From Escherichia phage ES12: a DNA stretch of 64,000 nucleotides. Shown piece by piece: positions 3,750-50,261 of the stretch (positions within the stretch are counted from its first letter, which is position 1; every line of letters begins with the position of its first letter). The notes below the pieces were generated by a model. That model did not search any database, was not told the origin of the DNA, and worked only from the letters and a program-made list of their open reading frames with translations. Location: sequence record MN508614.1; one strand, written 5' to 3'. Both the position numbers and the translations under genes were made by a program.

Positions 3750-4082
3750 TTATTTTACTACTTTCCAATGCTGCATGTCAAGTTTACCAACTTTTTTCAT
3801 CTTCTCAATTAAGCGTTCGGCACGTTGGCGAGCTGTAACATAATACCATTCACCTAATTCATTTTGTTCAATTTTTCCAACGATTACTGTATTCAATTCA
3901 TAAATCCAACCAGTAAAGAAATTATGAACTTGAATTGTAAAGGTGAAATCTGTTCCCATACCTTCTGTTGTTTCTACTTCAATAATATCACCTTCAACTG
4001 CCATTAAGAACCACATAGTTTCATCATATTTACCATTGAAGCATTTAGTTTTAACTGCAGCGTTCAGATTAATCGTTTTCAT
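3750..4082 (-). CDS. hypothetical protein, 110 aa
   Basis: ORF track; ATG start. Confidence 0.55.
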   Translation of the reverse strand: MKTINLNAAVKTKCFNGKYDETMWFLMAVEGDIIEVETTEGMGTDFTFTIQVHNFFTGWIYELNTVIVGKIEQNELGEWYYVTARQRAERLIEKMKKVGKLDMQHWKVVK

Positions 4083-47363: not shown

Positions 47364-47735
47364 TCACTCAAATTTAATGGCTTGAAGGAGACTAATAACT
47401 CTCAAGCGACTTCTTTCATCTTTAACTGTAAAAGAAAGAGGGTCACCAGATTTCATAGTAATAGTACATTCAAAATCAAAATCTTCGGAAACTTCTTTGA
47501 AGAAGTCAAATTCTTCATCATAAATTAGAACATTACTCTGACAACTATGAAGAATTTTTCCATCATTTCCAGATGCTGTACTAATCATTGTAACATTATG
47601 ACCTTTCATATCTTCAACGATAAATTCACTAGTCAATATTACAGCATTAATAGAACTATTCCTATTACTAGCAGAAAGTAGATATTTCTGTTCTTCACCT
47701 TCACGAATGCGATATTTCTTACCGATTTTAAACAT
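47364..47735 (-). CDS. hypothetical protein, 123 aa
   Basis: ORF track; ATG start. Confidence 0.5.
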   Translation of the reverse strand: MFKIGKKYRIREGEEQKYLLSASNRNSSINAVILTSEFIVEDMKGHNVTMISTASGNDGKILHSCQSNVLIYDEEFDFFKEVSEDFDFECTITMKSGDPLSFTVKDERSRLRVISLLQAIKFE

Positions 47736-48551: not shown

Positions 48552-48644
48552 TACATTCTCCAAGTTTCTGTATCAGTAGTTGATATTGATATAGTACCAT
48601 AATCAACTACTGATGTATATAGTTTTATGAAAAAATTTTAAACT

Positions 48645-49136
48645 TTATGCATAGCGAGCTTTGCTGTAGTGTTTAATCCAGCTTTCAGGAATGACTTTGT
48701 ATGTTCCTAAAAATACAACGTTGTACAACTTAACGCCATCTTCTACCCATTGATCAGTAATGTATGCACACATAGCGCGAGTACGGCGAGGAAGGGGTTG
48801 TCCACCTTCGGTAAATTCAAACTCATAAGGAGCAACGAACTTAATAGCTTGACCGAGTTTCCACTTAAAGTCTACACCTACATGCGAAGTATCAATCGTT
48901 TCAATTCCTTTAGCGGGAACAGCTTTCAAAAACGCAGGCTCAAGAAATTTCCATCGAACATAACCAAACTGAGGTTTAGACATTCCATCTTTAGGAATGA
49001 TACGCACTTTTACTTCAGAATCTTCATCTTTAACACCGTGTTTAAGCTGAATGCTTACGACTTCAACCAATTTTCCTGCTGCTTTAGAACGGGATTTATC
49101 AGATACACGAGCCAATTCACCAATATTAATAATCAT
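48645..49136 (-). CDS. hypothetical protein, 163 aa (paralogue A)
   Basis: ORF track; shares C-terminal TDQWVEDGVKLYNVV motif with next ORF. Confidence 0.55.
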   Translation of the reverse strand: MIINIGELARVSDKSRSKAAGKLVEVVSIQLKHGVKDEDSEVKVRIIPKDGMSKPQFGYVRWKFLEPAFLKAVPAKGIETIDTSHVGVDFKWKLGQAIKFVAPYEFEFTEGGQPLPRRTRAMCAYITDQWVEDGVKLYNVVFLGTYKVIPESWIKHYSKARYA

Positions 49137-49212
49137 AGTTATCTCTCACTTGTTAAAAAGATTTTATACTCCACAGGACCATTATACTCTGGTCCCAAGA
49201 GTTTGTAAACTA

Positions 49213-49758
49213 TTAATTCAAAATAGCTACCACCGCACTACGAGGTACTACGCTAAAATCACCTGCATGAACAACGTTCAGAAGTTCAACACCATCTTCA
49301 ATCCACTGGTCTGTTACCCAACCACAGATAGGATTATCAAAAGGACGATGGATAGACACAGCAGCACACAACAGGTCTGTAGGGTCTTGTTCTTCAACTT
49401 CTTGGAACAGGATGAACTCATCTTCATAAACCAGGTTTTTCTTTATTTTGTTATTATCTAACCGGCGACCGTGGATGACGTAAGATTTATCAAACCACTC
49501 ACTTTTGGCAAATTCTTCAACAATAAATTCGCCTTCGCCAAAAACATCAGTCAGAGTTTTATGACCAGAAATCAAGGCATTAGTTTTAATTTTAGGTTCA
49601 ACCAGTTTGTAGGTTTTGCCGATTTCAATAGCGGTAGTCATAGTAGGTTCCTTAATTTCCAGTGGTTTAACAGGGCATACATAAGTGCTTACAACATCAA
49701 AATCAATCAGTTTAGCTACCGGATTTGGTATGTATTCAGGATTATAATTAAATTTCAT
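49213..49758 (-). CDS. hypothetical protein, 181 aa (paralogue B)
   Basis: ORF track; C-terminal TDQWIEDGVELLNVV motif. Confidence 0.55.
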   Translation of the reverse strand: MKFNYNPEYIPNPVAKLIDFDVVSTYVCPVKPLEIKEPTMTTAIEIGKTYKLVEPKIKTNALISGHKTLTDVFGEGEFIVEEFAKSEWFDKSYVIHGRRLDNNKIKKNLVYEDEFILFQEVEEQDPTDLLCAAVSIHRPFDNPICGWVTDQWIEDGVELLNVVHAGDFSVVPRSAVVAILN

Positions 49759-49760
49759 AA

Positions 49761-50261
49761 TTATCTCATTTCAATAAAATCTACGAGTTCAGCATGCGAT
49801 TTGCGGAACATTACTTGGTGCCCACCAATGATAACTTCATCTTCAGGAACTTCGTATACAGCGAGATAAAATCCTTTAGAAGATAATTCTTCCCGCTCTT
49901 CTCGTGTGAACCATCTCATCATATCATACTCACTAGCGAAAGCAAAATGATAAAGAGCTATAAACCATCCTGGAATATGATATTCTACTCCAACATAATC
50001 TTTCTTGAACTTAGTATTAATTACTATATTAGCGTTTTTAACTAATAGTTTATCTTCGTGTGGTAAAGGAATTCTTTTATTATTATCGCTATGATGCATA
50101 AAATTAGGTCTGTCATAACCTACGTGTAATAGCCACTCTTCGCTCCATGAATCTATTATACTCCTGTACGGCGTTATTTGAACACAAAGATTTCGACGTA
50201 TTGTTATAGCATCTTCATAATCAAGAATACTAAACGATGATTCAACACGATAAATTTTCAT
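49761..50261 (-). CDS. hypothetical protein, 166 aa
   Basis: ORF track; ATG start with GAGG RBS. Confidence 0.55.
   Translation of the reverse strand: MKIYRVESSFSILDYEDAITIRRNLCVQITPYRSIIDSWSEEWLLHVGYDRPNFMHHSDNNKRIPLPHEDKLLVKNANIVINTKFKKDYVGVEYHIPGWFIALYHFAFASEYDMMRWFTREEREELSSKGFYLAVYEVPEDEVIIGGHQVMFRKSHAELVDFIEMR

Follow-up and report, generated by a model that had tools for sequence, protein, structure and literature searches.

The 64-kb window, by which the whole analysed stretch of 64,000 nt from Escherichia phage ES12 (MN508614.1) is meant, contains a run of minus-strand genes between 45.2 and 53.1 kb. Two adjacent reading frames in this run, at 48645..49136 and 49213..49758, were found on the minus strand with the peptides quoted in the preliminary description. 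The 4.1-kb stretch around them has 100% DNA identity to Escherichia phage ES26 and 95-96% identity to many Tequatrovirus genomes, and at least 80% of it is covered in 411 phage records; by this sequence likeness the genome is assigned to Tequatrovirus. In T4 (NC_000866) and in the annotation of DalCa the gene order is 39, 39.1, 39.2 (encoding an FmdB-like zinc ribbon), goF, cef, motB, motB.1, motB.2, dexA, dexA.1, dexA.2 and dda, and in the window it is 39, 39.1, an extra ORF, 39.2, goF, cef, motB, motB.1, motB.2, dexA and dda. The synteny is the same except for the extra ORF between 39.1 and 39.2, and the earlier guess that the locus corresponds to the T4 motB/dexA region was correct.

The extra ORF (47364-47735, minus strand, 123 aa), located between 39.1 and the FmdB-like 39.2, is present in DalCa and has no T4 counterpart. 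Its first 82 residues match the N-terminal barrel of MotB.1 (hhalign E 5.7e-5), and BLASTP gives E 0.004 to the MotB.1 proteins of the window and of T4 alike; it probably encodes a further member of the GoF/MotB.1 LSm-like family, paralogous to the MotB.1 N-terminal barrel. The product of motB.2 (49761-50261, minus strand, 166 aa) shares 91% identity with T4 MotB.2; phrog_1106 is its PHROG family, and its single Pfam match is a sub-threshold SRA (SET and RING associated) domain (E 0.09). The spacer between cef and motB (48564-48644) has 81 nt, about 90 nt fewer than the approximately 170 nt of T4 and DalCa, and holds a 20-nt imperfect inverted repeat (48572-48591 / 48595-48614, 85% complementary, 3 nt apart). 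No Rfam family reached its gathering score in the region or the window, this inverted repeat included. The plus-strand ORFs 48750-49208, 49051-49461 and 49471-49869 were taken as antisense artefacts, the sequence being explained by the minus-strand genes.

The frame at 48645..49136 (stop codon included) encodes a basic two-domain early protein of 163 aa with a pI of 9.4. The Pfam family PF17613 (motB) aligns from residues 1-163 to profile positions 1-162 of 162 with 321.6 bits (1.1e-96; curated cut-off 25), phrog_1671 (MotB) matches with E 7.7e-76, the product is 88% identical to T4 MotB over its full length, and the gene sits between cef and motB.1 as in T4. It is identified on these matches as motB, encoding a full-length member of the MotB family. 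The AlphaFold2 model (mean pLDDT 79) consists of two beta domains with a disordered linker (aa 70-83) between them. The N-terminal one is a KOW-like/SH3-like barrel (aa 1-68; 48933..49136, minus strand), in which the conserved basic stretch 'VSxxSRSKAAGK' was located at aa 11-22 by alignment and model; this domain with its stretch is absent from ORF 49213-49758. The C-terminal domain (pLDDT 77-93) has five strands (97-108, 117-132, 135-142, 145-150 and 154-157), of which the last is preceded by a 3-10 turn at 151-153. Both domains are basic (pI 9.6 for the KOW domain and 9.1 for the C-terminal domain).

The frame at 49213..49758 (stop codon included) encodes an acidic early protein of 181 aa (pI 4.8), a variant of the T6/RB14/ime09 type. 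It is matched over its full length by phrog_2333 (MotB.1) with E 1.3e-88, 232 homologues were found, and tblastn gave matches in 739 phage records. It lies directly upstream of motB and combines a non-KOW N-terminal domain with a MotB.1-type C-terminal domain, 'DPTDLL...GWVTDQWIEDGVELLNVVH...VVPRS', and is assigned to MotB.1 (phrog_2333; categories 2-4 of Son et al. 2021). PF17613 covers only profile positions 120-153 on this protein, indicating that it shares a domain with MotB and is no full-length member of that family. The AlphaFold2 model is poor (mean pLDDT 56.7), with values of 29-35 for aa 1-40 and 45-64 for the C-terminal domain, and is unfit for detailed structural claims on the latter; the C-terminal strands it gives at low confidence are 133-136, 144-154, 157-164 and 167-172, followed by a 3-10 turn and 176-178.

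The N-terminal domain of MotB.1 (aa 41-122; 49393..49638, minus strand) is modelled as a small barrel with pLDDT 70-81, a bent five-stranded antiparallel beta-sheet of SH3-like topology, as defines the GoF/MotB.1/Frd.2 family, and probably represents a beta-barrel of the GoF/MotB.1 'LSm-like' type. The GoF family profile phrog_622 matches aa 44-125 (E 3e-4), and hhalign connects the domain to P0240 and to domain 2 of P0234 with E about 1e-7; against the N-terminal domain of T4 type it aligned end to end but weakly (E 0.009, probability 4.5%), and against the GoF of the window no match was obtained. By BLASTP the N-terminal domains of the window and T4 MotB.1 were not linked, the T4 protein matching only aa 103-181.

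The barrel is preceded by an N-terminal extension (aa 1-40), predicted to be disordered, which contains the conserved short motif AKLIDFDVVSTYVCPVKPLEIKEP (aa 15-38; 49645..49716, minus strand). The motif has the form 'hhDxD(V/I)x(S/H)MY..P..P(L)', its window copy reads 'LIDFDVVSTYVCPVKPLEIKE', and it recurs in distant relatives between a KOW N-terminal and the C-terminal domain, e.g., 'VVDTDVASMYLTPGLPLVIDP'. The sole match of the motif profile in the window is ORF 49213-49758 (E 1.5e-11). Since the motif is conserved at the protein level within aa 1-40, M1 rather than M40 is supported as the start of MotB.1, and a start at Met40, although preceded by a good AAGGA Shine-Dalgarno sequence, was rejected. 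The motif may be a docking peptide; it goes unmentioned in the papers discussing MotB.1 (PMC7827196, PMC12152347).

The start codon of motB.1 lies 2 nt past the motB.2 stop, and from this distance the two genes are probably translated from one transcript. For motB, an early-type sigma-70 promoter is predicted at 49181..49209 (minus strand), within the 76 nt that separate motB.1 from motB (TTTACA-17-TATAAT, 11/12). It is the best-scoring site of the region, a promoter is annotated at the corresponding position of DalCa, and the segment from the promoter to the motB start is nearly invariant among the window, T4, T6 and DalCa.

The C-termini of the two proteins had been described as homologous, and this similarity proved significant. 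BLASTP aligns MotB aa 120-152 with MotB.1 aa 142-174 without gaps (17/33 identical, 24/33 positives, E 2e-11), excluding the outcome that it is not significant; these residues form the best conserved core of the module (48681-48779 in motB and 49237-49335 in motB.1, both minus strand). The Pfam motB model matches MotB.1 at aa 143-176 only, with 34.1 bits against the curated cut-off of 25, and the PHROG profiles cross-match (phrog_1671 on MotB.1 aa 121-179, E 1.3e-16; phrog_2333 on MotB aa 120-153, E 7.9e-10). An hhalign comparison of 112 MotB with 121 MotB.1 sequences gave 98.2% probability and E 3.8e-14, and a chance similarity of the C-termini is ruled out by the BLASTP, Pfam and hhalign results. 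For the N-terminal regions of MotB and MotB.1 hhalign sees no sequence relation (probability 0.2%).

The shared unit had been put at about 30 residues; the homology stands, and the length does not, since about 60-75 aa, making up a complete beta-barrel, are shared. An extra first strand aligns ('WKLGQAIKF' in MotB, 'DLLCAAVSI' in MotB.1, and 'WKLCKGVEF' in many MotB homologues), and the predicted strand order is equal over MotB aa 88-163 and MotB.1 aa 123-181, indicating that the module is the complete barrel in these limits. The MotB copy (aa 88-163; 48648..48875, minus strand), supported by BLASTP, hhalign and the module profile (114 bits), has a longer loop before the core than the MotB.1 copy (aa 123-181; 49216..49392, minus strand; profile 75.5 bits), which is acidic with a net charge of -7 and a pI of 4.1. 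The core follows the pattern 'C-G-(W/Y)-(V/I)-T-D-Q-W-(V/I)-E-D-G-V-x-L-x-N-V-V', then V(V/I)P; the positions that do not vary in either family hold D, W, E, G, L, N or V, none of them basic, and both families have a semi-conserved Cys ahead of the core. In a six-frame search of the window the module profile found exactly these two copies and no third one (next best E 0.59), and it had no match in the window to proteins of the GoF/Frd.2 type, which have no MotB C-terminal domain. Comparison by hhalign of the KOW N-terminal, LSm-like N-terminal and shared C-terminal barrels gave no relation, so an internal duplication is unsupported.

Over the 33-residue core the DNA of motB and motB.1 is 55.6% identical, with third codon positions matching in 11/33 cases, which is saturation, and there is no DNA repeat between the genes as a sign of recent duplication. 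The module core is invariant in 22 diverse MotB.1 sequences that are 75-92% identical overall. The saturated third positions, the missing repeat and the invariant protein core together indicate that the duplication is old and that both copies are under purifying selection.

In the T4 reference sequence (NC_000866.4/AF158101.6; positions 3792-3870, minus strand, of the extracted locus L002, compare window 49213-49300), motB.1 carries one extra G, reading 'ATTGGAAGATGG' where the window, T6 and DalCa have 'ATTGAAGATGG'. MotB.1 is annotated there with 119 aa, ending '...GGWVTDQWIGRWR', and the next frame continues 'EDGVELLNVVHAGEYSVVPRSAVVAILN' to a stop; the extra G thus frameshifts motB.1 inside the conserved module, and the intact T4 protein has 143 aa. 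The version without the G is found with 101/101 bases in 13 other T4-type records (T4T, RB55, RB59, three KJ4776xx, MT984581, MZ375356, two OL9647xx, two OZ209xxx and OZ035787), which encode the 143-aa protein with its C-terminal domain complete, and the insertion only in AF158101.6 and NC_000866.4, where it appears to be a one-base error or a stock-specific mutation. Kim et al. (PMC12152347) expressed motB.1 from pBAD33, with gene synthesis and plasmid by GenScript, gave NC_000866.4 coordinates for other constructs and obtained a mostly insoluble MotB.1 product of 13.8 kDa. The size of this product and the use of NC_000866.4 suggest that the functional tests were performed with MotB.1 truncated in its C-terminal domain. 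The truncation of the reference falls in the best-conserved domain of MotB.1, and functional tests have made use of a synthetic gene matching the annotated size.

The T6 record (NC_054907; positions 1501-2040 of the extracted locus L003) has an in-frame stop at motB.1 codon 56 (LVD*IKT), and motB.1 is annotated there as two ORFs; the stop reflects a mutation of the laboratory stock or an error in sequencing, and it fits a gene that is dispensable, at least in laboratory conditions. In the 43-aa protein P0251, the first 17 residues of MotB.2 (MKIYRVESSFSILDYED) are fused to the last 26 of MotB.1 (GVELLNVVHAGDFSVVPRSAVVAILN); this is a natural deletion of most of motB.2 and motB.1 and recalls the 'category 3' peptide of 29 aa described in RB69.

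That the similarity is due to chance or composition, or that motB.1 is no more than a non-functional relic decaying after a duplication of motB, is hardly credible. Decay would agree with the T6 stop, with the deletion fusion P0251 and with the finding of Kim et al. 2025 (PMC12152347) that neither deletion nor amber mutation of T4 motB.1 produced a phenotype in the laboratory. However, motB.1 is intact in hundreds of phage records, most natural isolates being undisrupted, no sequence other than the T4 reference shows its apparent truncation, and the C-terminal core is invariant despite saturated synonymous positions; chance is already refuted by the pairwise and profile-profile E values given above (2e-11 and 3.8e-14).

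To describe the distribution of the module, its profile was run in an exhaustive search against 1.84 billion representative proteins, and 34 clusters were obtained at E <= 0.001. Five long matches, each made up of 4-6 short aligned stretches, were discounted because they look spurious, P0253 because its sequence is that of a low-complexity repeat protein and P0252, P0256, P0258 and P0259 by their length and stretches. In the phage-type matches the module stands at the C-terminus or within about 15 residues of it, except in P0254, a frameshifted fragment, and the module cluster sequences that were examined are small proteins like MotB or MotB.1. The protein library carries no source names; among the viral structures of BFVD, those that match the MotB model belong to T4-like phages of enterobacteria, and by the searches done here the module barrel is confined to T4-like phages.

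Six architectures were observed: KOW with a MotB-type C-terminal domain; KOW with a MotB.1-type C-terminal domain (P0236, P0238, P0241, P0245-P0250); a T4-type LSm-like N-terminal domain with the C-terminal domain (P0239, 144 aa); the window type with N-terminal peptide, LSm-like domain and C-terminal domain; two LSm-like domains with the C-terminal domain (P0234, 251 aa); and an extra N-terminal domain followed by peptide, LSm-like domain and C-terminal domain (P0037 and P0243, about 248 aa). Judged from these sequences, the architectures represent domain shuffling around a constant C-terminal barrel, and the N-terminal region is not one diverged domain. The preliminary description had proposed duplication followed by N-terminal diversification. 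Its duplication is retained; the N-termini, a KOW barrel in MotB and a GoF/MotB.1-type LSm-like barrel in MotB.1, differ by exchange of whole domains and not by divergence of one domain. Its further idea, that the proteins might reach different host partners by way of a common effector or anchoring part, is speculative, the experimental facts being confined to T4 MotB. With high confidence, motB and motB.1 are regarded as old tandem paralogues that arose by duplication of the gene or of its 3' part and exchange of the N-terminal domain.

The strand order of the module, four strands, a 3-10 turn and a fifth strand, is that of SH3-like barrels, strands 3 and 4 being separated by no more than a tight turn; in an OB-fold a helix would lie there. 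The C-terminal domain, whose conserved face is acidic, resembles an SH3-type barrel more than an OB-fold. The published proposal for this domain is an OB-fold of the cold-shock DNA-binding type. A search of PDB sequences with the module found no relative at E <= 10. On the SH3-type reading, protein contact gains over DNA binding as a working hypothesis for the role of the module.

On the favoured explanation, each protein consists of two small beta-barrels with a flexible linker between them, and the C-terminal barrel is the shared unit. In MotB this unit is preceded by the basic KOW-like barrel, and in MotB.1 by the disordered N-terminal peptide and an acidic LSm-like barrel of the GoF/Frd.2 type. 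Our tentative proposal is that the shared barrel may give a common protein contact, to a host or phage partner or in self-association, and the N-terminal barrel the specificity for nucleic acid or another target. For MotB the target would be DNA, bound mainly through the KOW domain and the 'SRSKAAGK' stretch, and for the acidic MotB.1 it would be something else, perhaps RNA. Kim et al. (PMC12152347) saw no RNA effect of MotB.1. The proposal draws on the charge contrast between MotB (pI 9.4) and MotB.1 (pI 4.8, with pI 4.1 and net charge -7 in its C-terminal domain): since MotB.1 is acidic and the module has no invariant basic residue, the hairpin of strands 2 and 3 fits protein contact better than DNA binding. 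The basic C-terminal domain of MotB (pI 9.1) counts against it. It would be compatible with a somewhat doubtful alternative, in which the shared barrel itself binds nucleic acid, as in the published OB-fold/cold-shock-like proposal, so that both proteins would be nucleic-acid-binding and their N-terminal domains would modulate this activity. Son et al. 2021 (PMC7827196) proposed that either domain of MotB could bind DNA.

It is also conceivable, though unlikely, that the shared barrel is an oligomerisation module, forming homo-oligomers or mixed MotB-MotB.1 complexes with which the N-terminal domains would act jointly on the nucleoid. Such a role would suit the adjacency and co-conservation of the genes (40 other genomes have both motB and motB.1; PMC7827196), the semi-conserved Cys ahead of the core in both families and the nonspecific covering of DNA along its length by MotB (abstract of Patterson-West et al. 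2018, PMC6070864). T4 MotB.1 was partly dimeric in non-reducing SDS-PAGE (PMC12152347), but this dimer came from the 119-aa version, which is without the last three predicted barrel strands, indicating that the intact module is not needed for it, and AlphaFold3 gave no confident homomultimers in the same study.

Returning to the protein-contact proposal, a more specific form of it is distinctly speculative: the shared barrel would be an adaptor of T4-like phages on a common partner, most plausibly H-NS/StpA, MotB.1 would be a second, acidic factor on that partner, and 'DxDVxSMY' would be a further docking motif. On this adaptor reading, the function of MotB.1 was maybe missed because the heterologous experiments used the 119-aa product lacking the last three strands.

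The observation that MotB and MotB.1 have a conserved C-terminal domain and different N-terminal domains, and its reading as a probable duplication, are already published (Son et al. 2021, PMC7827196, section 3.2), and Table S4 of that paper lists close homologues of the window MotB.1 (RB14/RB32 ORF010c, ime09, HY03_0194 and UFV13 g011). The shared domain in itself therefore changes little. What is added here is the extent of the shared unit as a whole C-terminal small beta-barrel, its distribution over 34 clusters and the contrast of a basic MotB with an acidic MotB.1; two by-products, the truncated T4 reference gene and the SH3-type reading of the module, are useful to workers on T4 early genes.

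Among known systems, the small SH3-like barrels of KOW, Tudor, chromo and PWWP domains (Spt5 KOW6-KOW7, 5ohq; NusG, 2xhc; ERCC6-L2 Tudor, 6hq9) resemble those of MotB and MotB.1 in fold only; no sequence relation to them was found, with no Pfam match other than motB and no PDB match, and the likeness is no evidence of a common function. The LSm-like fold family in which Kim et al. 2025 (PMC12152347) placed the N-terminal domain of T4 MotB.1 together with GoF and Frd.2 is defined by that domain and is silent on the module common to MotB. T4 MotB.1 (NP_049627) has the same module and the same position immediately upstream of motB as the window protein, with BLASTP identity to the reference protein of 58% from window aa 103 to the truncated reference end at aa 153, and tblastn identity to the intact T4 motB.1 of 70% over aa 103-181. 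It differs in its length (143 aa, 119 as annotated, compared with 181 aa), in the absence of the 40-aa N-terminal peptide and in an N-terminal barrel from which that of the window is too diverged for BLASTP, hhalign giving E 0.009.

The closest comparison is with T4 MotB (NP_049626; PF17613 'Modifier of transcription'). The window orthologue has its genomic position and its succession of a KOW-like N-terminal and a C-terminal domain, agrees with it in length to 1 aa, and differs from it at the sequence level only, in the loop aa 107-119. T4 MotB binds unmodified and glucosyl-hydroxymethylated DNA tightly and without specificity, co-purifies with H-NS and StpA, is toxic on overproduction and doubles burst size (PMC6070864). 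It also alters the DNase I footprint of H-NS, and its overproduction de-represses host genes silenced by H-NS, with 75 host genes up-regulated, roughly one third of them H-NS targets (PMC7827196). At 88% identity, the DNA binding, the co-purification with H-NS/StpA and the toxicity on overexpression would be expected to carry over to the MotB of the window.
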